This document shows positions 3,351-26,746 of a DNA stretch of 64,000 nt, in pieces. Position 1 is the first letter of the stretch, and each line of letters begins with the position of its first letter. Location: positions 1,984,001 through 2,048,000 of the forward strand of contig CBDBKE010000004.1 of the NCBI GenBank assembly GCA_965206645.1, read 5' to 3'. Under the pieces are notes generated by a model. The model did no database searches. It had not been told where the DNA came from and worked only from the letters and a program-made list of their open reading frames with translations. This DNA comes from Terriglobia bacterium. Lineage in GTDB: Bacteria; Acidobacteriota; Terriglobia; JAJPHL01; JAPKYU01. The translations under genes and the position numbers were made by a program.

Positions 3351-3980
3351 GCAACGGATCGGCGCCGTGATGAAGTGGGCGGTCGCGATGGGCTACCGGC
3401 CGTACAACCTGGCGGGCGATGCCCTCGGGTAGGCGGTCGGGCGGCAGCGGGCCGTCGTCCAACACATACGGGCGCCACTCCACGGTGCGGTGGCGGACGT
3501 CCTCGCGACCGTGCGAACCTCCCGGGCGTTGGTCACCACCAAGGATGCGTTTGAGCTCTTGGTGTTGACGGCGGCGCGGTCCGGCGAGGTGCGTCTGGCG
3601 ACGTGGGATGAGATGGACCTGGACGCGGTCGTGTGGACCATCCCCGCCGCGCGCATGAAGGCGAAGCGGGATCACCGCGTGCCGCTCTCCGAGCGGGCGA
3701 TCGAGATCCGGCACGACGCACGGAGGCGCAGTGACGACACGGGCCTGGTGTTCCCCAACCCGCGTGGGAAGCCGCTCTCCGACATGACGCTGTCGCAACT
3801 GATCAAAGAACTCGGCATCGCCGCCGTGACGCATGGGTTCCGGTCGAGCTTCCGGGACTGGGCCGGGGAGCGGTCAAACACACCCCGTGAAGTGATCGAA
3901 GCGGTGCTCGCCCATACAGTGCGCAACCCGACAGAGGCGGCCCATGCGCGCAGTGATCTCTTGGAGTGCCGTCGCCGTCT
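3351..3980 (+). pseudogene. Tyrosine recombinase (P4-like integrase) fragment
   Basis: LTAARSGEVR, RMKAKRDHRVPLS, HGFRSSFRDW, LAH; truncated by MITE and IS3. Confidence 0.85.
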
Positions 3981-4594
3981 TGACCTGACCGGCACTTTTT
4001 GTACCAAGTGGAAAGAGAGAGAATCCACTTGAGGAGGGAGTGAGGTCATGCCGACAAGGAGTTACAAGCCGGAGCAGATTGTAGCGGTGCTACGGCAGAT
4101 AGAAGTGCAGATGGGGAACGGGAAGACTGCGCCCCAAGCCTGCAAAGAAGCTGGAATCCACACCCAAACCTACTACCGGTGGCGGAAGGAATACGGCGGG
4201 CTGAAGGTGGTGCAGGCAAAACGGCTAAAGGAGTTGGAGAAGGAAAACACGCGGCTGAAGCGGTTGGTAGCGGAGCTTTCTCTGGAGAAGCAGGTGCTGC
4301 GGGATGTGGCACAGGGAAACTTCTGAGCCCTGAGCGGCGGCGTTGTGCGGTGGAGCGTGCGTGGGAGCAACACGGGTTGTCGGAACGGCATGCCTGCCGG
4401 CTGCTGGGGCAATGGCGAGGGACACAACGATACGAGCCGATTCATCGGGTGGACGAGGATGCTCTGACCCGAGCGATCATTGCCCTGGGAGCGAAGTACG
4501 GGCGATATGGCTACCGGAGGATCACAGCGTTGCTGCGGAGTGCGGGCTGGGAAGTGGGCAAGGACCGGGTGCAGCGGATTTGGCGGCGGGAAGG
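3981..4594 (+). mobile_element. IS3-family element type A, 3'-truncated by IS5
   Basis: IRL TGACCTGACCGGCACTTTTTGTACCA; orfA 4048..4326; orfB broken at 4594. Confidence 0.92.
4048..4326 (+). CDS. IS3 transposase OrfA
   Basis: MPTRSYKPEQIV...KRLKELEKENTRLKRLVA; ends at the GGGAAAC frameshift window. Confidence 0.9.
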   Translation: MPTRSYKPEQIVAVLRQIEVQMGNGKTAPQACKEAGIHTQTYYRWRKEYGGLKVVQAKRLKELEKENTRLKRLVAELSLEKQVLRDVAQGNF

Positions 4595-12124: not shown

Positions 12125-12255
12125 GGTACTGTCAAGTTGAGCAGAATCCGCCCGTTTTGCGGAAGGATTCTGCTGGATCAGAGACTGAGAATCAATGACT
12201 TAGCGGTGGCGGCGAGCGGCGAGAATGCCGCCAAACTGCTTAACTTGACAGTACC
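12125..12255 (+). mobile_element. 131-bp IS6-type MITE, copy 3
   Basis: Same IRs and body. Confidence 0.9.
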
Positions 12256-12553
12256 CTCGGCGAAACTTACCCACATCCATGGAGAAGTCGATCTCATTTT
12301 TTTCCAGCACTCGAACGTGATCGTAAAGCGCACGAAACAGACGTTCCTGCCACAGGAAGTAACCGTCCAGGCCCCAGAAAATCAGCACGGGAACCAACGC
12401 CACAGGTGCGAACTTAGGATGTCCCCCTCTTGCTAGCAGAACAAATAGTGCGGCCGCTAAGGCCACGCTCCAACCCTTCATCCGGAATGAATCAGCCGCG
12501 AGCTGGTTGACCACGCCTTGGATAAATTCGAGATGCTTGAACTTTGCCTCCAT
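12256..12553 (-). pseudogene. Small membrane protein, 3'-truncated by MITE
   Basis: KHLEFIQGVVNQLAADSFRMKGW plus two hydrophobic segments and FWGLDGYFLWQERLFR. Confidence 0.65.
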
Positions 12554-13550: not shown

Positions 13551-15079
13551 GTGACACAGGCTGACCTGATACAAACGGCCCTGGCTACGCGCGGCCCGAT
13601 GCGATCGTCGCACCTCGCGGCCCATCTCACTGATACATATGGCCTCTCTCCTGATGCCGCCAAACAGCGTGTCTCACGGGCGTTGCCGCCTATCCGCAAG
13701 TTCCCTATCCGCCTCCTGCCGAAGAACGAGGCCTTTCTTTACCACCAGAACGACCGGAACTCGGAGAGGTTCTGGGATGCTCTTGTCCGCTCCCTGCGTG
13801 AATCCTCTTCGATTTACGGCTTGGCGCTTGACGGTCTGATAGCTCGGGGCGGACTAGCCCAGCGCCCGAGTTTCAATGTCGTGGCCGGCGCGCCCGAGGC
13901 GCAAAAAAGCAGGTGCCGCTGTCTGGCTTGCTGGACAATCTCGAAAACGCCGCCCTCGTCAAGCGGTTCGAGGTTGGCGAGATGGGCGAATGCGTCTGCC
14001 TTGATCCCCAGGTGTTCGACACTCCCGACCCGCACACGTTCCGCGCCCGCAAGATCGCCGAGGATGTGCTTATGGACGGCCTGCGCGAGTGGACGCGCAA
14101 GCTCGGGCTCGCCAGCTACAACGCCATTGAGATCCGAAACGCCGAACGGGCTCCGAAATTCAGCACGTTCCACTGGGATCTGTCCGGCCCCAGCTATCTG
14201 CTCCCCCTGGTGTCCGTCGGCCGCGATGGCCGCAAGCCTGGATTCTTCGTCGCCGACGTGTTCTGCAACGGCACGTTGGATGTGCAGAACATTCAGTATT
14301 TCCTGCGCAAGGTTCGCATGCTCAAAGCAATGCGTCGGGTTGTACCGTTCATGCCGGTTCTGCTTGCCGACCGTTATACGACGGAGGCCCTGCGGGCCGG
14401 CAAAGCGGCCGGCATCATAATGGCGACGACCCGCAATCTTTTCGGTGATGTGGTAGCCCAGGCCCTCAGCTCCCTGATTGATACGCTGACCCACGCTGCC
14501 GCAGTAGCCGCCAGCAACCCGGACCGTCTTATCGGTCTGCTCAAGGACCTCAGTGCGATTGAAGGCGCTGCGGGCAACTTGCGCGGCTCACTGTTCGAGA
14601 TGATCGTCGGCCATCTCGTCCGGGAAGTTGAAGGCAACACGATCGATATCGGAGAGATCGTCTATGACCCGGAGTCTGGCAAAGCCGCCGAAATCGACGT
14701 GCGGCGCATAAAGGAACGTCAGGAATGCTGGTTCTACGAATGCCGTGCCCGCCAACCCAACGCCCGGATCGGTGCGGATGAAATCTCCACCTGGATTGAG
14801 AAGGTCAACCGCGTCTGGCGATCCCACCGCGCCCAAGAGCGTTTTCAGAGTTGCCGGTTCGGCTTCGAGATTTGGACGACTGGCCACTTTGACGACAAGG
14901 CGCTGGCGCTTCTAGAGGAAGAGAAAGCAAAGCGCAAGCGTATAGAGATCGGCTGGCGCGACGGCGCCCATGTGCGGGATTATGCAAAACGGGCTTCGCG
15001 TAAGGCCATTCTCGACACGCTCGATGAGCATTATTTCAAGCATCCTCTGAGCGATGCGAAACAGGCCGCGTCTTGGTAG
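13551..15079 (+). pseudogene. About 509-aa protein with C-terminal PD-(D/E)XK nuclease-like motif, 1-nt frameshift in an A6 run
   Basis: ORFs 13551.. and 13913..15079 join if one A is added at 13903-13908; LRGSLFEMIV...EIDV...FYECR. Confidence 0.7.
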
Positions 15080-15209: not shown

Positions 15210-16271
15210 GGCGTTGTTGCGTAATTCGCGCTCGCGGCGAACCGGGCCGAGAAGCTCATCCGCCTCAGTACACGCGCTCCGATCGTGGCATTCCAAGCTC
15301 CGCCATCCGGTTCAGCACAGCGCACTTGATCGCGGCTTCGACTTTTTGGTTCTTGACCGTGCGGGCCGAGAGGCTTACCCCGAGTATCGCCTTGTACCGT
15401 GAGACCGCATTCTCCGCCACGCTCTGGCGAGTGCAGCCACTCGACTTCCGCCACTCATAACGGCCCTGCGTCCTAATACGCCAGAGATGGGTATCACGCA
15501 TCGCACGCCACGGAGGCGGATGAGAGTCTCGGCTGCATCGTGCATTGCGTCGCGGCAAGATCGTCACGATAGCGTCGTGCTGGAGCACGGCCTCGTAGCA
15601 GGAACCCGTGTCGTAGGCCCGGTCTGCGGAGACTTGCCCGATCGAACCAGGAGTCTTAGACAGCAACGAAGAGAGCCTTCGGGCGTCGTGGACGTTGCTC
15701 GCAGTCAGGTCCATCGCAACGATCTCTTTCGTCGTCTCATCGACGCCTAGGTGGAGCTTTCGCCATGTCCTACGGCGGAGGGTTCGGTGTTTTCTGATGT
15801 GCCACTCACCGGCTCCGTAGATCTTCAGGCCCGTCGAATCGATGACGACATGTCGTGGTCGATCCGTGGGCCGCACACTCAGTCGGACGTCGACGGCGCT
15901 TTGCCTTCGGCTCACCGTGCTGTAGTTGGGCACTGGGAGGTCGAGAGCCATGAGCGCCACGATGGATTGAAGGAACCCTTGAGTGGTCCGTAGGTTGAGG
16001 TGAAACACCGAATTCAGGACCAGCGCACATTGGATCGCCGCATCTGCGTAGACCTTGGGCCGGCCTCGCCCTTCGAAGGGTCCTGGATGACGCCAGGCAG
16101 CGACTGCCTCCGTGTCGAACCACAGTGTCAGCTGCCCGCGTTTCACCAGAGCCCGGTTGTACTCCGGCCAGTTGCGAACCTTATATCGGAAGGTGTAGTC
16201 GCTTTTGCCCATCCCCTAGCCTATCAGGAGGGAGAGCGTTGGGGATGGAGCCAGATTTCTGCAACAACGCC
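15210..16271 (-). mobile_element. IS5-family element, complete
   Basis: 1062 bp, both IRs. Confidence 0.93.
15265..16212 (-). CDS. IS5-family transposase
   Basis: Near-identical to 4654..5601. Confidence 0.93.
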   Translation of the reverse strand: MGKSDYTFRYKVRNWPEYNRALVKRGQLTLWFDTEAVAAWRHPGPFEGRGRPKVYADAAIQCALVLNSVFHLNLRTTQGFLQSIVALMALDLPVPNYSTVSRRQSAVDVRLSVRPTDRPRHVVIDSTGLKIYGAGEWHIRKHRTLRRRTWRKLHLGVDETTKEIVAMDLTASNVHDARRLSSLLSKTPGSIGQVSADRAYDTGSCYEAVLQHDAIVTILPRRNARCSRDSHPPPWRAMRDTHLWRIRTQGRYEWRKSSGCTRQSVAENAVSRYKAILGVSLSARTVKNQKVEAAIKCAVLNRMAELGMPRSERVY

Positions 16272-16989: not shown

Positions 16990-17065
16990 TTTGAAAGCTG
17001 TGCTCGGTTGCACCCAAAGTGGGTGTATATTTTCAATCGCCGGAAGGCCGAAAAGGAAATTCCGG
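16990..17065 (+). mobile_element. IS1380 right-end remnant
   Basis: GTGTATATTTTCAATCGCCGGAAGGCCGAAAAGGAAATTCCGG matches the IS1380 end at 37327-37369. Confidence 0.75.
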
Positions 17066-17070
17066 CTCCA

Positions 17071-19053
17071 ATGCCGACCATCCTCCCCTCGGCAAGCGAC
17101 ATGACTCGTGTCCTCGGCTGCAGCATCTTGCTCGCAACAGCCGCTGCCGCGCAGGTATACACGATTGAGACCATCGCGGGAGGTGGGGATGGAGTTGGCG
17201 ACGACGGTCCGGCTATCAGAGCCAAGTTGACAGAACCAACCGGCGTGGCGGTCGACGCCGCGGGCAACATCTACATTGCAGATCGGCACAATCACCGCGT
17301 ACGCAAGGTCGACACCTCAGGAACCATCAGCACCTTTGCGGGCACGGGGGTGGGCACGAGGGACTATGGTTTCAACGGGGATGGCGGACCAGCGGACCGC
17401 GCCTTGTTGGCTTTCCCTGAAGGGGTGGTTGTGGACGCCGTGGGCAACGTCTACATCGCAGATACGGACAACCATCGTATCCGCATGGTCGATGCCTCGG
17501 GCATCATTCATACTATCGCGGGCACGGGGGTGGGAGGCGCCACAAGGGAGGGCGGTTTGGCCGTCGAGTCTGATCTATTTAGGCCTCTCGATGTGGCGGT
17601 GGACGGTGCTGGCAATATATACATCGCGGACTTCACTCGCATCTTCAAGGTCGACATCTCGGGTATAATCCGCACTTTCGGGGGGACGGGACGGGCGGAA
17701 ACTGGCGCTAACGTCTTCGCCCCTCGCGGCGTGGCGGTAGACGCCGTCGGCAACGTCTACTTTACTAACCCTTCCTTACCCGGTATCCGCAAGGTTGACG
17801 TCTCGGGCGCCATTAGTACAGTCGTCGAATTGGTGGAAGAGGATAATCTTCCCCGAGGTCTGGCGGTCGACACCTCCGGAATCGTTTACTTCACGGACAT
17901 CATAAACTTTCGGGTTTACAAGGTCGACGCCTCGGGTGCCCTGACCACCATCGCCGGCCTGGGAGTGGGGGACTATAGCGGGGACGGCGGCCCGGCCACG
18001 AAAGTCAAATTGGAATTTCCTAGAAACGTGGCGGTGGACGGCACGGGGAACGTGTATATCCAAGACTTCTCCCGCATTCGCAAGGTTGATGTTTCGGGCA
18101 TCATTGACACTATCGCGGGCGGGGGTGAGAGAGACTCTAGTGGAAATAGCGGCCTGGCAGCCGGAACCTTTCTGGATAATCCTCGTGGACTGGCAGTGGA
18201 CGATGCAGGCAACATCTTCATCGCAGAATGGGGCAGACACCGCATCCGTAAGGTCGACACGTTGGGCGTCATCCACACCATCGCGGGCACGGGAGAGAGT
18301 GGTTTCGGCGGAGACGGCGGCCCGGCCACCAGCGCTCTGTTGGCTTTCCCCCTTGGGGTAGCAGTGGACGCAGCTGGGAATGTGTACATCGCAGACGCTT
18401 TGAACCACCGCATCCGCAGGATAGACATCTTGGGTGTCATCGAAACCATTGCAGGTTCGGGTGATGGGGTTAGCGAGGAGAATTTCAGAGGAGATTATGG
18501 GGGAGACGCAGGTCCGGCCACTAGCGCCTTGCTGGCTCGCCCAGATGACGTTGCAGTGGACGACATGGGCAATGTCTACATCGCGGACACGTTCAACCAC
18601 CGCATTTGCAAGGTTGATGCTTCGGGCATCATTGACACTATCGCGGGCACGGGAGAAAGAGGCTTTGGCGGAGACGGCGGTCCGGCCACCAGTGCTTTGT
18701 TGACTTTCCCTCAAGGAGTGGCGACGGACGGCGCGGGCAACATCTACATCGCAGATGCGGAGAACCACCGCATTCGTGTGGTCGATAGCACGGGTGTCAT
18801 TCGCACTATCGCGGGTACGGGAGAGGACGGGTTCGGCGGGGACGGCGGCCCGGCGGTTCAGGCCCAGTTAAACTACCCCCCTGGCGTGGCGCTGGACGAT
18901 GCGGGCAACGTCTACATCGCCGATACGCACAACCACCGGATCCGAATCCTGACGCCTGCCGGTGGTGAGCGAGCGCCACTGTTAGAAGAAATACGCGGTC
19001 TTCTTCGACTACGATCTGCGGTCCCGACACGCACGTTAGGAGGGAAAAAGTGA
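17071..19053 (+). CDS. Secreted NHL-repeat beta-propeller protein
   Basis: Signal peptide (ILLATAAAA|Q); about 11 repeats of P.GVAVD..GNIYIAD..NHRIRKVD; start 17071 or 17101. Confidence 0.92.
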   Translation: MPTILPSASDMTRVLGCSILLATAAAAQVYTIETIAGGGDGVGDDGPAIRAKLTEPTGVAVDAAGNIYIADRHNHRVRKVDTSGTISTFAGTGVGTRDYGFNGDGGPADRALLAFPEGVVVDAVGNVYIADTDNHRIRMVDASGIIHTIAGTGVGGATREGGLAVESDLFRPLDVAVDGAGNIYIADFTRIFKVDISGIIRTFGGTGRAETGANVFAPRGVAVDAVGNVYFTNPSLPGIRKVDVSGAISTVVELVEEDNLPRGLAVDTSGIVYFTDIINFRVYKVDASGALTTIAGLGVGDYSGDGGPATKVKLEFPRNVAVDGTGNVYIQDFSRIRKVDVSGIIDTIAGGGERDSSGNSGLAAGTFLDNPRGLAVDDAGNIFIAEWGRHRIRKVDTLGVIHTIAGTGESGFGGDGGPATSALLAFPLGVAVDAAGNVYIADALNHRIRRIDILGVIETIAGSGDGVSEENFRGDYGGDAGPATSALLARPDDVAVDDMGNVYIADTFNHRICKVDASGIIDTIAGTGERGFGGDGGPATSALLTFPQGVATDGAGNIYIADAENHRIRVVDSTGVIRTIAGTGEDGFGGDGGPAVQAQLNYPPGVALDDAGNVYIADTHNHRIRILTPAGGERAPLLEEIRGLLRLRSAVPTRTLGGKK

Positions 19054-20612
19054 TGAACTCCGCAAGAGCAAAGCCCTCGGGGACGGTTGTAGTTGAACGC
19101 GGTCCGGTCAGCCTGGCCGTAGATTCAAAAAGAAGAGGAGGATGGAGAGGAATGTTCAAATTCAATCTGTTTGCGGCCATGCTATGTCTGTTAACCCTAA
19201 ACTTGATGGCGCAAACCGTGCCGCGGCCCGCAGGTCCCTACTTCGAGCCACTCCTGGATTGGCAATACAGAGCAGGAATATCGAAGCGCGACATCGTGAT
19301 CGCCCCCGGCGACAGCATCATTCCCCAGATTGCAAACAGTGGGACCCCGCAAAACGGGGGATTCTTTATGATCTTCCAGGCCAGTAATGTCTCGACGACC
19401 ATGGCGACGTTCCAAGTGGACTTCTTCGACCCGAACGGGGAATCCATGAACATGCCACTCGCAACAAGTCCCGATGACCTGACTGGCACACCTGCCCGTG
19501 GATTTCAGGGGGCCCTCTCCCCGGGCGGTTACGGTGCGCAAGTTACGATTCCAGACGGCTCTCCCACGGCCATTGGTTATGCCGTGGTGACCATGAATCC
19601 GGCCAAATCGGTTGCAGTCAACGCGACGTTCTTGCAGTTAGTTCCAGGGCGCCCGCTGTTTATGGCCGGCGTGCCACTGTCGAACGTCCTTCACAAGACG
19701 GCATTCATGCCGTACCTATCAGGGGCTGGGTTCACTCCCACCCTGGCTTTGGTGTCGCTGCAGTCTCAGGATGTGACACTGATTGCGCGCACCGGCTTTG
19801 GCGGGGCCGAACTCTGTAGAGCCACAATGAACTTCGGTGCTGGGCATCACCGACCGTTCCTGTTAAGGGACGTTCTTTCCTGTACGTCTGCGTCGGAGGG
19901 AACGCTTGAAATTCGCGGAGATCCTCTGTTGCCTGGCTCCATAGCAGGGATTGGCTTTGAAGCGCATGACGAAGGAGCGTTTGTGACCCAGCCGATCTGG
20001 ACGAGCTTGGCGCGAGTTACGGGCGAGATGTTCGCTCCGGCAGACGAAGCTGCGTTCAACGATCTCTCCGTTGGTAAACGGGTGGCGACGAACTACCCGA
20101 CAGTCTATGTGGATTTTGTCAGTCCCGGGCGTTTCAGGGAAACCGAGGGCGCGGACACCTATACGGGAAGCTATACCTATCGGAACACAGGTTCGAATAC
20201 GGGAACGTTAACGTTTAACTACGATGACGGCGATCGCTGTACGGCCAGCCTTACGTTTGATTCGACGACCTCGGGCACCGCAACCTCCACGTGCGACGAC
20301 GGATCGAGCGTAGAATACGACTGGCGGTTGATTGATATTCCCACCGGCGGAGACGATACAGCCGAAACACGGTACAACGTGGGTGACGTGATCACCACCT
20401 TGCCCACCGGAACCTGGTTTCCTGACCGGCTCAGCGGCAGCGTCGGGTTCAGGTTCGTAGACGGCAAGGCGGACATCCGCTTCGGCAACGGCGGGCTTAT
20501 CGAAGAGAATGGCTACAGATACATGTGCGAGAATGCCGGAGGTTGCCACGTCAATGACCGGGAGGTAAAAGCCAGGACGATTGTGGAAACCTCAACAGAG
20601 AACAACAACTGA
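19050..20612 (+). CDS. Secreted hypothetical protein, multi-module
   Basis: Signal-like FAAMLCLLTLNLMA|Q after ATG 19152; beta-rich modules; Thr/Gly-rich C-terminal domains. Confidence 0.75.
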   Translation: MMNSARAKPSGTVVVERGPVSLAVDSKRRGGWRGMFKFNLFAAMLCLLTLNLMAQTVPRPAGPYFEPLLDWQYRAGISKRDIVIAPGDSIIPQIANSGTPQNGGFFMIFQASNVSTTMATFQVDFFDPNGESMNMPLATSPDDLTGTPARGFQGALSPGGYGAQVTIPDGSPTAIGYAVVTMNPAKSVAVNATFLQLVPGRPLFMAGVPLSNVLHKTAFMPYLSGAGFTPTLALVSLQSQDVTLIARTGFGGAELCRATMNFGAGHHRPFLLRDVLSCTSASEGTLEIRGDPLLPGSIAGIGFEAHDEGAFVTQPIWTSLARVTGEMFAPADEAAFNDLSVGKRVATNYPTVYVDFVSPGRFRETEGADTYTGSYTYRNTGSNTGTLTFNYDDGDRCTASLTFDSTTSGTATSTCDDGSSVEYDWRLIDIPTGGDDTAETRYNVGDVITTLPTGTWFPDRLSGSVGFRFVDGKADIRFGNGGLIEENGYRYMCENAGGCHVNDREVKARTIVETSTENNN

Positions 20613-21008
20613 CAGGCTCTATGTGCTCGATTCGCAGCACAAGGTCCACACGTATTGGACCTTAGGACAGCGCGATCCGGCTTTTGACTTCGACCTGGAC
20701 GCCGAGATTGTACTTGCTGACGGGCTCAATCCTACTACTTTCTTCTCCGGGGACTAGAGTTTTAGAGTGGAGGTCCCCGAGGGGGCGGCAGCGCTCAGCG
20801 CCAATCTGGACGAACATGGCGCGAGTTCTAGAGTAGCGCATCGCCTTTTTGTGACGAAACGTGGCCTTGTCTGGCAATTCCGGCGATGTAGGGTGCCGCC
20901 CGGATTGCTGCAACAATATCTTTTCAGGACGATGAGCCTGTGACTGCGGCTAGGAAGAAAAACATGCTACTCGGAAAGCTTGACGAATCCGCCGGCAGGG
21001 TGAGTTCC

Positions 21009-23810
21009 ATGGTGTCTCTGGTGTTGCGCCGCTCAGGGATTTTCTTTCTCCTGGCATTTTCTCTGCTGGCGCAGTCAGCCTGGGGCCAACGGATCGGGCC
21101 GCTGGTTCTGGACAACCAACAGCGGTCGAAGGCGTCGCCGGCCGAGCGCGCGGCGGCGGTCCGGCCGCCCAGCCTGCGACTGAGCCTTCCGTCGCCCGCC
21201 GCGGTTGCACTACCGCCGTTGGGTCCCGACGATTTGCAGCGTTTGCAACCGCAGGGGGGCAGGCCTCCCGTCATCGGCGTCCACCGTCGGTTGCCGCCGG
21301 GGGCGGTCACGCTGAGCTTCTCCGGGAGGACTGCCAAGACGACCGCCGGGGGAGCGTGGCAATCGACCGCGGTCGGGCGCCTTTGGCGTCTGAAGACGAC
21401 CTCCCCCGGCGCTCGCGCGATGCGCATTCACTTTCGGGACTTCGCCATCGGGGCGGGCAGCCTCTGGCTCCACTCGGCGAGCGGGCAGGTCGCCGGGCCT
21501 TACAGCGGCTCGGGTCTGTATGGGGACGGAGACTTCTGGAGCGGTATTATTTTCGGCGACAGCCTGACGATCGAGTATCTGCCCGATGGGGAGTCGGCGG
21601 AAGAAACCGTGCCGTTCCGAATCGTGGCGATCAGCCATATCTGGGACGATGCTTTTGGAGGCGGCGTGGAGGGCGGAGTCCGAGGGCCGGCGGCCGCGTT
21701 GGGAGGCTCGGGCAGGTGGGGATCGGTAAAGCCGCTGCCCGACCGGATCGACGTTGCGGTGGGAACGCAGTCGAAGAAGGCGCGGCTTGCAAAGGAAATA
21801 CAGTCGGTCGAGCGGTTCGCCTCCCTGCGACATCCGCGCCCGAAAGCGGCAAGACAACTCGTGCCCGGACAGCCCGCCGACTTCAGCTTAGATCCGGTTG
21901 ACTCCTCGACGCTCTTCGCCGGAGATCACTCGTTCCGGCTGGAGGTTCCCACGGGCGCCTCCCGCCTAACCTTCACGCTGGAATCCGTCGATCCCGATGT
22001 CGACGTGGATATGTTTGTTCGTTTTGGGCAGGACAACGCCCTTCGAGATAGGAGGGTTGTCACGGACTACTCCTCCGAGGGACTCACGGGCAACGAGGAG
22101 ATTGTTATTACCTCCCAATCCGATCCGCCGCTTCGAGCCGGAACCTACTTCGTCTCGCTTGGAGTCTTCACTACGGGCGTCGTCGCCGAGGGCACGGTCA
22201 CAGCGACAGTGGAATTCGACGGAGAGGCTCCGCTGCCGATAAGCGGCGGTCCGCTCACGCCCGGACAGCCCGCCGACTTCCTTCTGGGGCCGGTTGATAC
22301 GCCGACGCTCTTCAATGGGAATGACTCGTTCCGGCTGGAGGTTCCCACGGACGCCTCGCGCGTAACCTTAACGCTGAGATCCTCTGTCGACGTGGCTCTG
22401 CTTGTCCGCTATCGAGAGGACAACGCCCTTCAGGATGGGAGTCCTGTCTTTGACTACTTCTCTGACGAGGTCTTTGCGGGCACCGAGGAGATTGTCATTA
22501 CCCCCCAATCCGACCCGCCGCTCCGAGCCGGAACCTACTTCGTCTCGGTATTAGTCTTTGCTACGGGCGTCGTCGCCAACTGCACGCTCACGGCGGAAGT
22601 GGAACTCGACGGAGAGGCTCCGCCGCCGATAAGCGGCGGCACGCTCGTGCCCGGACAGCCCGCCGACTTCCGCCTGGGGCCGGTTGACTCCCGGACGCTC
22701 TTCGCCGGGGATCACTCGTTCCGGCTGGAGGCTCCCGAGAATGCCTCCCGCGTAATCTTCACGCTGGAATCCGTCGATCCCGATGTCGATGTGGATTTGT
22801 TTGTCCGCTATGGCGAGGACAACACCTTCCAGGATGGGAGGCCTGTCTTTGACCACGCCTCCTTGGGACTCACTGGCAATGAACGGATCGGCATCACCCG
22901 CCGCTCCGACCCGCCGCTTCGAGCCGGAACCTACTTCGTCTCGGTATTAGTCTTTGATACGGGCGTCGTCGCCGAGGGCACGCTCACAGCGACCGTGGAG
23001 ACGGACGCCGCGGACTGTCACCTTGACGCGACCTGCTACCCAGAATGGTCGAGTTCCGCAACGGGCGTCGCGCGAATTCTCTATGAGACAAGCGAGGGCA
23101 GTTTCGTCTGTTCGGGCACATTGCTGAATAACCGCCAGCAGGACTTCATTCCCTACTTTCTCACCGCCGCCCACTGCGTGGATACCGAGGAGGAAGCGCG
23201 GAGCGTGACAGCGTTCTGGTTATACCAGACACGAACCTGTAACGGAGAACTGCCGGACTTTCAGAGCGTGCCGCGTACCGAGGGAGCGCGCCTGCTCTCG
23301 ACCTTGGGCGACGGCTTTCATCCCGACGGCGATATGACGCTGCTGCGGCTCGAAGGTGATTTACCGGACGGTGTGATGTTCCAAGGCTGGGACGCGGCCT
23401 CTCAACCTATTGGCGCGCAGGTCACCGGCATTCATCATCCCGAAAGCGATGATTGGGGCTTCTTCAAGCGGATTTCCTTCGGTCAGATCATTCCCGACCC
23501 GGGATTTGAAACTTCCGACGATGTCTACGCCATCGTCTCCTATCCGGTGGGACAAGGCTACACGGAGCCGGGCTCGTCCGGGTCCGCCATCTTCAGCAGC
23601 CCTGGAACCGTAGTCGGGGCACTGAGCGGCGGAGACATTGTCGGGTATGCCTGCCCGACCGGCCTCGTTCATGACGTCGTAACACACTTTTCGGTTTTCT
23701 ATCCTCATATCCGGCAGTTCATTGACAGCGGCGAGCGAGCGCCGCTGTTGGAAGAAATACGAGGCCTCCTTCCACTAGTCTCTCGTACGACAAAAGAGTT
23801 GACGTACTAA
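21009..23810 (+). CDS. Secreted trypsin-like (lysyl-endopeptidase-type) serine protease with three PPC-like repeats
   Basis: CSGTLLNN, LTAAHC, GDMTLLRL, GIHHP, TEPGSSGS; signal peptide; three repeats of about 130 aa. Confidence 0.88.
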   Translation: MVSLVLRRSGIFFLLAFSLLAQSAWGQRIGPLVLDNQQRSKASPAERAAAVRPPSLRLSLPSPAAVALPPLGPDDLQRLQPQGGRPPVIGVHRRLPPGAVTLSFSGRTAKTTAGGAWQSTAVGRLWRLKTTSPGARAMRIHFRDFAIGAGSLWLHSASGQVAGPYSGSGLYGDGDFWSGIIFGDSLTIEYLPDGESAEETVPFRIVAISHIWDDAFGGGVEGGVRGPAAALGGSGRWGSVKPLPDRIDVAVGTQSKKARLAKEIQSVERFASLRHPRPKAARQLVPGQPADFSLDPVDSSTLFAGDHSFRLEVPTGASRLTFTLESVDPDVDVDMFVRFGQDNALRDRRVVTDYSSEGLTGNEEIVITSQSDPPLRAGTYFVSLGVFTTGVVAEGTVTATVEFDGEAPLPISGGPLTPGQPADFLLGPVDTPTLFNGNDSFRLEVPTDASRVTLTLRSSVDVALLVRYREDNALQDGSPVFDYFSDEVFAGTEEIVITPQSDPPLRAGTYFVSVLVFATGVVANCTLTAEVELDGEAPPPISGGTLVPGQPADFRLGPVDSRTLFAGDHSFRLEAPENASRVIFTLESVDPDVDVDLFVRYGEDNTFQDGRPVFDHASLGLTGNERIGITRRSDPPLRAGTYFVSVLVFDTGVVAEGTLTATVETDAADCHLDATCYPEWSSSATGVARILYETSEGSFVCSGTLLNNRQQDFIPYFLTAAHCVDTEEEARSVTAFWLYQTRTCNGELPDFQSVPRTEGARLLSTLGDGFHPDGDMTLLRLEGDLPDGVMFQGWDAASQPIGAQVTGIHHPESDDWGFFKRISFGQIIPDPGFETSDDVYAIVSYPVGQGYTEPGSSGSAIFSSPGTVVGALSGGDIVGYACPTGLVHDVVTHFSVFYPHIRQFIDSGERAPLLEEIRGLLPLVSRTTKELTY
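21858..23000 (+). repeat. Three intragenic repeats of about 390 bp (PPC-like domains)
   Basis: PGQPADF...SFRLE...DPPLRAGTYFVS starting at 21858, 22254 and 22644. Confidence 0.9.
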
Positions 23811-24791: not shown

Positions 24792-24848
24792 TGCGACGCG
24801 CATCAGAGGATACTGTCAAGTTCAGTGGGAGCGTGGCAGACTTGGCCG

Positions 24849-25499
24849 ATGAAACGCGACACGCTGAGCTACCATGGATATCGATCCCCACCCGACATTA
24901 TCAGCCACGCCGTCTGGCTGTATCACCGCTTCGGTGTGAGCTTTCGCGATGTCGAAGATCTCCTGGCCCAACGCGGCATTACGGTGTCCTACGAAGCGAT
25001 CCGGCTGTGGTGCCTCACGTTCGGTTCAGTATACGCTCGCCGGCTCAAGCGTCGACAGGGCCGGCTGGGCGACATCTGGCGCCTGGACGAGGTCTTCGTC
25101 ACCATCCAGGGACAGCGGCGCTATCTCTGGCGTGCCGTCGATCAAGATGGTGACGTCATCGATATCCTCGTCCAGTCGCGTCGCGACTGTCGGGCGGCTA
25201 CACGCTTTTTCCGCAAGCTGTTGAAGGGCCAGGAGCGTACGCCTGGGCGGTTGGTCACCGACAAGCTGAGCAGCTACAGGGCTGCGCACCGAGCGGTCAT
25301 GCCGTCCGTCGCCCATCGCACGGACCGATACGAGAACAATCGCGCCGAAGTCTCCCACCAGCCCACACGGCAACGCGAGCGACAAATGCGCCGGTTCAAA
25401 TCTCCCGGGCAGGCACAACGATTCTTGTCCGTGCATGGACTCGTCCGCAACCTCTTCCGCGTTGGCCGTCACCTGGTGCGAGCGGTGCATCATCGGTGA
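24849..25499 (+). pseudogene. IS6 transposase truncated by IS3
   Basis: ORF ends at the TGA of the IS3 IR; the true C-terminus is at 27015-27068. Confidence 0.88.
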
Positions 25500-26746
25500 C
25501 CAGACCGATTTTTTGTACCAACCGTAGTGAGAGTTTACATCGCAGCCTGGGGCTGTGAAACTGGTTTCAGTGGCAGGGGAGGGCTATAGGCCCCCGGCGC
25601 CGGGGGCCTATAGCCGAGCGCCGAGTGCGGCCGCACCGTGTTGTATTGCACCCTCCACTGTTCAATCAGCACCTGTGCCTCCTTCAACGAGTAGAAGATC
25701 TCTCCATTCAGGCATTCGTCCCGCAGCTTCCCATTGAAACTCTCGCAGTACCCGTTCTCCCAGGGACTGCCCGGTTCGATGTACAGTGTCCCGGTCCCTA
25801 GATTTGCCAACCACTGGCGCAGTTGTTTGGCGATGAACTCGGGACCATTGTCGGATCGAATCTGTTCCGGTATCCCTCGCCACAACATCACGTCCGACAA
25901 CGCCTCAATGATTTGTTGGCTGCCCATCCTCCGCTCCACCCGGATCGCCAGGCATTCCCGCGTGTACTCATCCAGCAAGGTCAGCAGCCGCAGCGTTCTC
26001 CCCTCGTGCGTTCTGGCACTCATGAAGTCGTAGCTCCACACGTGGTTCGGTCGCTCCGGCCTCAGTCGTACACAGGAACCGTCGTTCAGCCACAGCCGTC
26101 CTCGCGGCCTTTGTTTTTGCGGCACTTTCAGCCCTTCCCGCCGCCAAATCCGCTGCACCCGGTCCTTGCCCACTTCCCAGCCCGCACTCCGCAGCAACGC
26201 TGTGATCCTCCGGTAGCCATATCGCCCGTACTTCGCTCCCAGGGCAATGATCGCTCGGGTCAGAGCATCCTCGTCCACCCGATGAATCGGCTCGTATCGT
26301 TGTGTCCCTCGCCATTGCCCCAGCAGCCGGCAGGCATGCCGTTCCGACAACCCGTGTTGCTCCCACGCACGCTCCACCGCACAACGCCGCCGCTCAGGGC
26401 TCAGAAGTTTCCCTGTGCCACATCCCGCAGCACCTGCTTCTCCAGAGAAAGCTCCGCTACCAACCGCTTCAGCCGCGTGTTTTCCTTCTCCAACTCCTTC
26501 AGCCGTTTTGCCTGCACCACCTTCAGCCCGCCGTATTCCTTCCGCCACCGGTAGTAGGTTTGGGTGTGGATTCCAGCTTCTTTGCAGGCTTGGGGCGCAG
26601 TCTTCCCGTTCCCCATCTGCACTTCTATCTGCCGTAGCACCGCTACAATCTGCTCCGGCTTGTAACTCCTTGTCGGCATGACCTCACTTCCTCCTCAAGT
26701 GGATTCTCTCTCTTTCCACTTGGTACAAAAAGTGCCGGTCAGGTCA
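25497..26746 (-). mobile_element. IS3-family element type A, complete, 1250 bp
   Basis: Both IRs; orfA 26401..26679, orfB from 25535. Confidence 0.95.
25535..26679 (-). CDS. IS3 transposase OrfAB
   Basis: As other copies. Confidence 0.9.

Follow-up and report, generated by a model that had tools for sequence, protein, structure and literature searches.

The window, by which we mean the whole stretch of 64,000 nucleotides that was analysed, carries a cassette of three genes between transposase genes (Table 1). These encode an NHL-repeat β-propeller protein, a middle protein that is referred to here as MID, and a serine protease. The likely start is ATG 17071 or 17101 for the NHL gene and ATG 21009 for the protease gene. 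All three proteins possess a hydrophobic N-terminal region that ends in a small-residue cleavage-like site, and no C-terminal membrane segment, as judged by hydropathy only. MID has no Pfam or NCBIfam match, and neither a lipobox nor a membrane segment was seen in it. Its C-terminal modules recur many times in very long ORFs that belong to other genomes of the class, with 25 to 26 matches in genomes G020 and G044.

Elsewhere in the window, two overlapping ORFs of 289 and 388 aa in different frames (13551-15079, plus strand; no Pfam match) look like one frameshifted gene, and 12200-12553 on the minus strand encodes a small protein of 117 aa that has two hydrophobic stretches and lacks a Pfam match. 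Parts of the stretch (share 0.26) are contained in two metatranscriptome runs of one study, as assembled contigs, which cannot show transcription.

Table 1. Features of the cassette and its flanks (positions in the window)
Feature	Position	Strand	Basis or remark
DDE transposase, left flank of the cassette	15265..16212	-	
Secreted NHL-repeat β-propeller protein, 681 aa as listed	17008..19053	+	ORF, Pfam NHL/TEN_NHL, hydropathy
Peptide copy 1, GERAPLLEEIRGLL, behind a short Gly/Ala linker	18964..19005	+	Sequence comparison
Variable tail of the NHL protein	19006..19053	+	Covers the ribosome-binding region and overlaps the middle ORF at its first start codon
Middle gene (MID), secreted protein, candidate docking partner	19050..20612	+	Likely start ATG 19152
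β-Sandwich domain pair of MID, the second resembling TM1070/ASRT (ASRAH-like dyad)	19317..20006	+	Predicted structure, structural superposition
Optional C-terminal modules of MID	20013..20609	+	No Pfam match; missing from 290-aa forms
Secreted serine protease: unassigned N-terminal region, PPC-like repeats, C-terminal trypsin domain	20940..23810	+	ORF, Pfam, hydropathy
Peptide copy 2	23730..23771	+	Conserved unit to about 23724-23774 (D-S linker to final Pro)
IS6-type DDE transposase and integrase-core transposase, right flank of the cassette	24825..26548		

The same 14-residue peptide, GERAPLLEEIRGLL, is encoded in both the NHL gene and the protease gene. An initial annotation of this DNA had noticed the identity, and the observation was borne out: the two 42-nucleotide copies agree at 36 of 42 bases and differ at exactly the six third positions that had been listed, giving six synonymous and no non-synonymous changes. 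As had also been stated, the two carriers have no domain in common, one having NHL/TEN_NHL repeats and the other PPC and trypsin domains (Pfam), and both have an apparent export signal, namely an N-terminal hydrophobic stretch with a small-residue cleavage-like site, in a hydropathy scan. Under neutrality, all six changes would be synonymous by chance with P = 6.7e-4 (site counting), and this outcome arose in 49 to 178 of 200,000 simulated sets of six changes, both figures being for peptide limits drawn after the match had been seen, with a 15th codon that differs non-synonymously (Pro/Arg).

A six-frame scan of the source genome located five places that match the peptide at 13 or 14 of 14 residues, the next best place having 9. 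The unusual codons CGA, ATA and GAA GAA are common to the peptide copies of all lineages. Because these codons and 36 of 42 bases are shared, the peptide DNA must have been inherited, grafted by recombination and then kept by selection. The earlier view that this is a selected peptide and not a DNA repeat therefore stands in its first part, but the DNA is also shared by descent. The peptide matches no family at any curated cut-off of NCBIfam or Pfam, as expected from the proposal that it lies outside known domains; for the tail, there was no NCBIfam match (whole proteins), no PDB profile match and no usable ESM Atlas hit. A literature search on the peptide in openly accessible papers returned no description of it, its one match being a paper on pig muscle. 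The peptide is a real feature, and it is undescribed in the searches made.

Distribution and conservation of the peptide

In the source genome, the five copies reside on two NHL and three protease paralogs, which are pieces of one NHL-MID-protease cassette broken by IS elements; among the nine NHL-like ORFs of this genome, only the two cassette paralogs bear the peptide. It was found in one of 60 other relatives, on a protease. A scan of one genome per species gave four matches, two of them by chance (L032 and L034) and two in a Bryobacterales genome, and around this genome the peptide is present in four of 121 genomes. A profile search yielded 81 clusters among 4074 candidates, of which 77 were retained after removal of P0078, P0080 and P0081, which are without the motif, and P0074, which has a frameshift within it. 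The 77 clusters comprise 27 trypsin-PPC proteases, all with a C-terminal copy, 30 NHL proteins with a C-terminal copy, and 20 NHL proteins in which the copy is relaxed and internal and lies before further domains such as FG-GAP repeats. Searching a word index with the tail of the protease brought up 31 candidates, of which 20 carried the peptide; these were all proteases. No third family was detected among 1.84 billion representatives in an index-free profile search (its eight hits are NHL proteins or small gene pieces), no match in the JGI metagenome collection, and only six weak matches, all unrelated internal or off-frame strings, in 400 genomes of the phylum; the short motif scores near the detection limit in such searches, and diverged relatives could escape them.

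Since only proteases and NHL proteins were found as carriers, as opposed to 45 matches of Soli_cterm, a common C-terminal domain, in the same genome, the peptide is a two-family element and not a general sorting signal. The suggestion that it tags diverse secreted proteins for secretion or sorting is thus not supported: the motif search did find it C-terminally on proteins with export signals, with NHL copies beside MID homologs, but not enriched across diverse domains. It is not confined to the two genes of the window, as it occurs in 77 clusters, yet it is confined to two families, and only 20 of the 77 clusters have it internally. Soli_cterm (TIGR03437), for its part, has 9 to 13 matches in three Bryobacterales genomes versus the 45 in the source genome, and it was not named in the openly accessible literature searched.

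The conserved unit consists of a (D)-S-G-G linker followed by E-R-A-P-L-L-E-E-I-R-G-L-L-P, about 17 residues in total, with the helix pattern L-L-x-x-I-x-x-L-L between prolines; the sequence beyond it varies. Five hydrophobic core positions are retained in all 77 clusters. Arg-11 is kept in 47 of the 57 C-terminal copies and is replaced by Gly in all 20 internal copies. The spacing between the motif and the C-terminus ranges from 1 to 14 residues. A tail of 12 to 15 residues after the motif, described initially, is present in the window pair but has no conserved part, and 28 of the 57 C-terminal copies stop no more than four residues past the final Pro; the DNA for the tail of the window NHL protein corresponds to the intergenic ribosome-binding region in L033 and L035. 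The expectation of an amphipathic helix without a transmembrane segment agrees with a hydrophobic moment of 0.59 and with the lack of any 19-residue hydrophobic segment in the last 60 residues, where the best 19-residue hydropathy values of two carriers are 0.30 and 0.86. A structural model of the protease domain with its tail had a mean pLDDT of 43.5 and was not usable, with a helix at 248-254 only.

Among the 27 proteases, no 15-residue window is as well conserved as the motif, which has a pairwise identity of 0.96 compared to 0.79 upstream, and in the 26 C-terminal NHL proteins long enough to compare, the values are 0.86 and 0.71. Conservation of the motif in the 20 internal copies is average (0.875 versus 0.874). 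The pN/pS ratio is 0.13 between the window NHL protein and four proteases (15 codons) and 0.13 to 0.65 over all class pairs, which are non-independent. As pS at the motif (0.24-0.44 across classes) resembles that of the flank, the adjoining NHL blade, recent gene conversion does not explain the identity. Such a pattern is more in keeping with a binding element than with a passive linker or a DNA tract that was converted recently, and selection on the peptide, as first proposed, is upheld both by the synonymous-only changes and by the motif being the most conserved window in the C-terminal classes. We consider it shown that the peptide was copied between the NHL gene and the protease gene by recombination and is under protein-level selection. 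Two NHL proteins, P0071 and P0072, carry the QFIDS junction of the protease, which shows that the two families have exchanged material. In a tree of 20 MID dyads, the window's copy nests among Bryobacterales copies, and horizontal movement of the cassette is suggested.

Other parts of the carriers vary quickly. A hypervariable stretch of the trypsin domain before its last strand (window 23560-23690 and homologs) has a pairwise identity of 0.51-0.66 versus about 0.85 elsewhere, and in the last NHL blade pN is close to pS between most classes. Diversifying selection on these two regions, as binding surfaces, is possible. In several mini-NHL remnants (L033 3779-4042, L035 about 3740-4042, P0071, P0082 and P0083), a collapse between repeats has left the peptide intact; some of these have a signal peptide, and such remnants could be secreted as free tags.

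MID and its linkage to the peptide

All 13 C-terminal NHL copies that were read in DNA lie directly upstream of a MID start (two each in the source genome, G061 and G066, six in G065 and one in G067), a set that includes three collapsed mini-NHL remnants and one copy cut by a contig end. In G062, an IS-truncated relic occupies the same place before MID. For three of four protease copies, MID is directly upstream; in the fourth, an IS element has removed the 5' end. The co-occurrence with MID homologs anticipated by the initial annotation was therefore found, but it is one-way: of 22 MID starts, eight lack an upstream peptide, two of the eight being followed by a tagged protease, and dyads related to that of MID are present in 46 of 121 genomes versus the peptide's four of 121. 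In G065, tandem NHL-MID pairs (L062/L063, G065:C1 about 850000-872400) are spaced by about 3.2 kb, with an IS21-type element within, and the NHL copies of this array differ strongly in the last blade. Given the place of the window's MID among Bryobacterales MIDs, all linked copies probably derive from one cassette; for this reason they are not independent, and the linkage could be historical. An NHL protein downstream of MID in G062 (L116 6493-7500, minus strand) ends in a different Pro-rich linker and a short tail, which may be an unrelated tag.

The N-terminal part of MID was modelled as two β-sandwiches (pLDDT 81). The second superimposes on TM1070 (1nc7; VIA) with Z 11.8, rmsd 2.6 and 102 aligned residues, the next unrelated entry having Z 6.9, and on ASRT (2ii7) with Z 8.6, rmsd 3.1 and 92 aligned residues; this match is for the second domain. 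According to the alignment summary, MID proteins have a near-invariant Asn after the second strand and lack a conserved Trp where the dyad begins. When PF07100 and PF18986 were queried, one of 37 MID members matched DUF5719 (E 0.0093). Of the Atlas clusters that have a name, DUF5719 and ASRT come closest, at a recognition value too low to be reliable, and Foldseek returned nothing at E 0.001 for the MID model. A candidate homology between MID and the C-terminal domains of P0069 was rejected as too weak (hhalign probability 5%, E 0.0078).

The ASRAH superfamily was defined in PMC2739507, the accessible part of which describes secreted forms as dyads or tetrads, lists three families, none from Acidobacteria, and predicts, but does not show, the binding of sugars or small molecules. 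ASRT is reported to interact with its rhodopsin, as far as the accessible parts of PMC3267196 and PMC8660804 go. MID resembles this superfamily (ASRT, TM1070 and DUF5719-type dyads, as described there) in the TM1070/ASRT fold of its second sandwich, its dyad form, its secretion and its near-invariant Asn. It differs in the role proposed here, peptide docking, whereas the proposals in those parts of the sources concern small molecules or sugars and no passage on peptide docking was found in them. The same dyad also occurs in fused form, behind an SBBP propeller (L010 in G001; P0161) and behind PPC domains (P0159), which is the pattern to be expected if a docking tail can replace a fused anchor.

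Possible functions of the peptide

Our leading reading, to which we give somewhat less than an even chance, is that the peptide is a docking helix that would attach passenger proteins to the MID dyad in trans. The flexible (D)-S-G-G linker and the short amphipathic helix, about 17 residues together, would make up a portable docking element, whose helix, once exported by Sec, would fold on binding the ASRAH-like β-sandwich pair of MID. In other acidobacterial secreted proteins such a domain is fused at the C-terminus; MID might in this manner provide it in trans, holding fast-varying passengers (propeller and protease) on a common adaptor. More speculatively, the dyad might bind a cell-surface glycan and so put the passengers on display at the cell. 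That the helix forms, that it binds the dyad and that the passengers are displayed at the surface are steps that we infer.

The initial annotation had suggested that the peptide binds the protein encoded between the two genes, and as a candidate partner this protein is supported by the linkage (13 of 13 copies) and weakly by a predicted complex. Modelling of the tail with the dyad gave a median ipSAE of 0.60, while the best of three controls reached 0.10, but one of the three runs failed (0.60, 0.02 and 0.73). Contact agreement was at least 6% and the pLDDT of the partner at least 34, with no interface returned. The ipSAE mark is reached by 116 of 157 solved complexes and two of 215 mismatches; at or below 0.60, there are only 18 solved complexes plus both mismatches. 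The prediction counts mainly because the linkage had made this pairing likely beforehand. Docking is weakened by the one-way character of the linkage, by the probable descent of all linked copies from one cassette, by the 20 internal copies and by pN/pS values that rise to 0.65 in some class pairs.

Cohesin-dockerin systems offer a close analogy. In these and similar systems of non-covalent display, unrelated secreted enzymes bear a portable module, which docks onto a β-sandwich adaptor encoded nearby; the dockerin is a duplicated calcium-binding loop-helix of about 70 residues. The peptide is likewise portable on unrelated secreted proteins, with a candidate β-sandwich adaptor gene nearby. 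It differs in having about 17 residues, a single helix of about nine residues and no calcium-binding repeat, in being restricted to two families, and in its ASRAH-like adaptor, and the tails have no dockerin match in Pfam. By analogy, the peptide and MID would most likely work like a very small dockerin-cohesin pair outside that family.

Among the other readings, a WH2-like actin-monomer-binding motif, mimicking eukaryotic ones on proteins that act on an animal host, with the helix in the actin cleft and the L-R-S box as LKKT, seems improbable to us. WH2 (PF02205) is the sole Pfam family matched by the tails (13.3 bits, E 0.069; four of 12 tails at about 12-13 bits), and their spacing, R-x2-LL-x2-I-x5-L-R-S, is compatible with a WH2 helix and the box behind it. 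The predicted short amphipathic helix, the hydrophobic spacing and, in some copies, a box of the L-R-S type (in 19 of the 20 internal NHL copies and in 14 of the 30 terminal ones) recall WH2 and the WH2-like helices of Tarp and RavH, and a helix-only bacterial example exists, according to the accessible parts of PMC5792643 and PMC13481308 (the helix-only case in the former). However, the score is far under the Pfam gathering score of 23.1 bits and within the decoy range, as one of 18 decoys of the pattern L-[LFM]-x-x-I reached 12.6 bits (one near-duplicate of 19 left out), and a WH2 search through five genomes gave chance matches of up to 15.9 bits, the motif sites not being listed. None of three internal copies with the full box matched WH2; the box is missing in all 27 proteases, with L-[RK]-S in 33 of 50 NHL copies, and a proline precedes the leucine pair, in contrast to WH2 as far as those sources describe it. 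A further difference is that the peptide carriers are Sec-type proteins and no injection system was found: none of five genomes had a match to T6SS VipB, FHIPEP (type III/flagellar) or VirB4-type proteins, and a sheath gene, present in three Bryobacterales genomes, is absent from the source genome and G003. The host, an animal such as a sponge, is one that we infer only from the repeat-rich secreted proteins and the accessible part of PMC8163846, and no publications joining WH2, symbiont, sponge and eukaryotic-like were found in a search of openly accessible papers. Phage-sheath genes above the cut-off are located at G061:C1:4065571, G065:C1:2561804 and G066:C1:2659459 and 1022320, and may belong to prophages or to contractile injection systems. 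Each of nine viral contigs (L053-L061) has an intact, intron-free actin-like ORF of 359-381 aa.

The helix, which bears a likeness to the MscL C-terminal helix, might instead self-associate in a small bundle, oligomerising each passenger or co-assembling propeller and protease without MID. Its amphipathic character (moment 0.59), the sole PDB match (a designed coiled coil, E 1.4) and the same sequence on both partners would suit a symmetric bundle. Yet about nine helical residues between two prolines are short for a stable bundle, the tails have no MscL match in Pfam, and the strict NHL-MID order would be left unexplained, so that this reading has a small chance of being right. We regard it as quite improbable that the segment is the relic of a junction, in which case it would have no partner and would be a linker or stability element carried along as the crossover point of a shuffling cassette. 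This reading would accommodate the shared DNA ancestry with its rare codons, the internal copies that join NHL to further domains (20 of 77 clusters), the protease junction in P0071 and P0072, the retention of the peptide in collapsed remnants, and the setting among IS elements. It is disfavoured by the synonymous-only change with normal pS, pointing to protein-level selection, and by C-terminal copies that are more conserved than the adjoining folded domains and that keep Arg-11 (47 of 57 versus none of 20 internal copies).

The distribution largely refutes a general signal for secretion or sorting that a dedicated machine would read, and such a signal must be considered very unlikely. In LPXTG, PEP-CTERM and GlyGly-CTERM signals, a transmembrane helix and basic residues come after the signature, and each genome has many unrelated substrates. 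Like these, the T9SS CTD and Soli_cterm, the peptide is placed C-terminally (in 57 of 77 clusters), and its carriers have N-terminal export signals. It differs in that its tail has no transmembrane helix, basic cluster or NCBIfam match, and unlike Soli_cterm with its 45 matches, it has five copies in two families in the source genome; the misfit to LPXTG, PEP-CTERM and GlyGly-CTERM noted initially is thereby confirmed. Also against a general signal are the low share of NHL-like ORFs of the source genome that bear the peptide (two of nine), the variable distance to the C-terminus (1-14 residues), and the lack of a transpeptidase or transporter gene in the loci read. Scarcely credible, finally, are tandem acidic dileucine signals mimicking eukaryotic endosomal sorting motifs (consensus [DE]xxxL[LI]). 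The peptide consensus holds two dileucine patterns, the second kept in 52 of 57 C-terminal and six of 20 internal copies, but the first is lost in 24 of 77, amphipathic helices yield such patterns by chance, and these signals act in cytosolic tails, while no injection system was found in the source genome.

Returning to the docking helix, its fullest form would be a minimal peptide-and-adaptor display, in which a 17-residue tail, grafted by recombination onto fast-varying secreted proteins, plugs onto a separately encoded ASRAH-like dyad and replaces the fused dyad in trans, giving an unannotated domain family its first function, that of a peptide-binding anchor. We put this forward tentatively, as rather unlikely in its entirety. 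The narrow range of the peptide (two families, few genomes) limits its importance, and it is not a new general secretion signal. If docking is real, an unannotated β-sandwich dyad that is present in 46 of the 121 genomes surrounding one Bryobacterales MAG would gain a peptide-binding role. It would also become clear how these bacteria bring variable propellers and proteases together on one adaptor, and the peptide and dyad would provide a genetically encoded tag-and-catcher pair of very small size.
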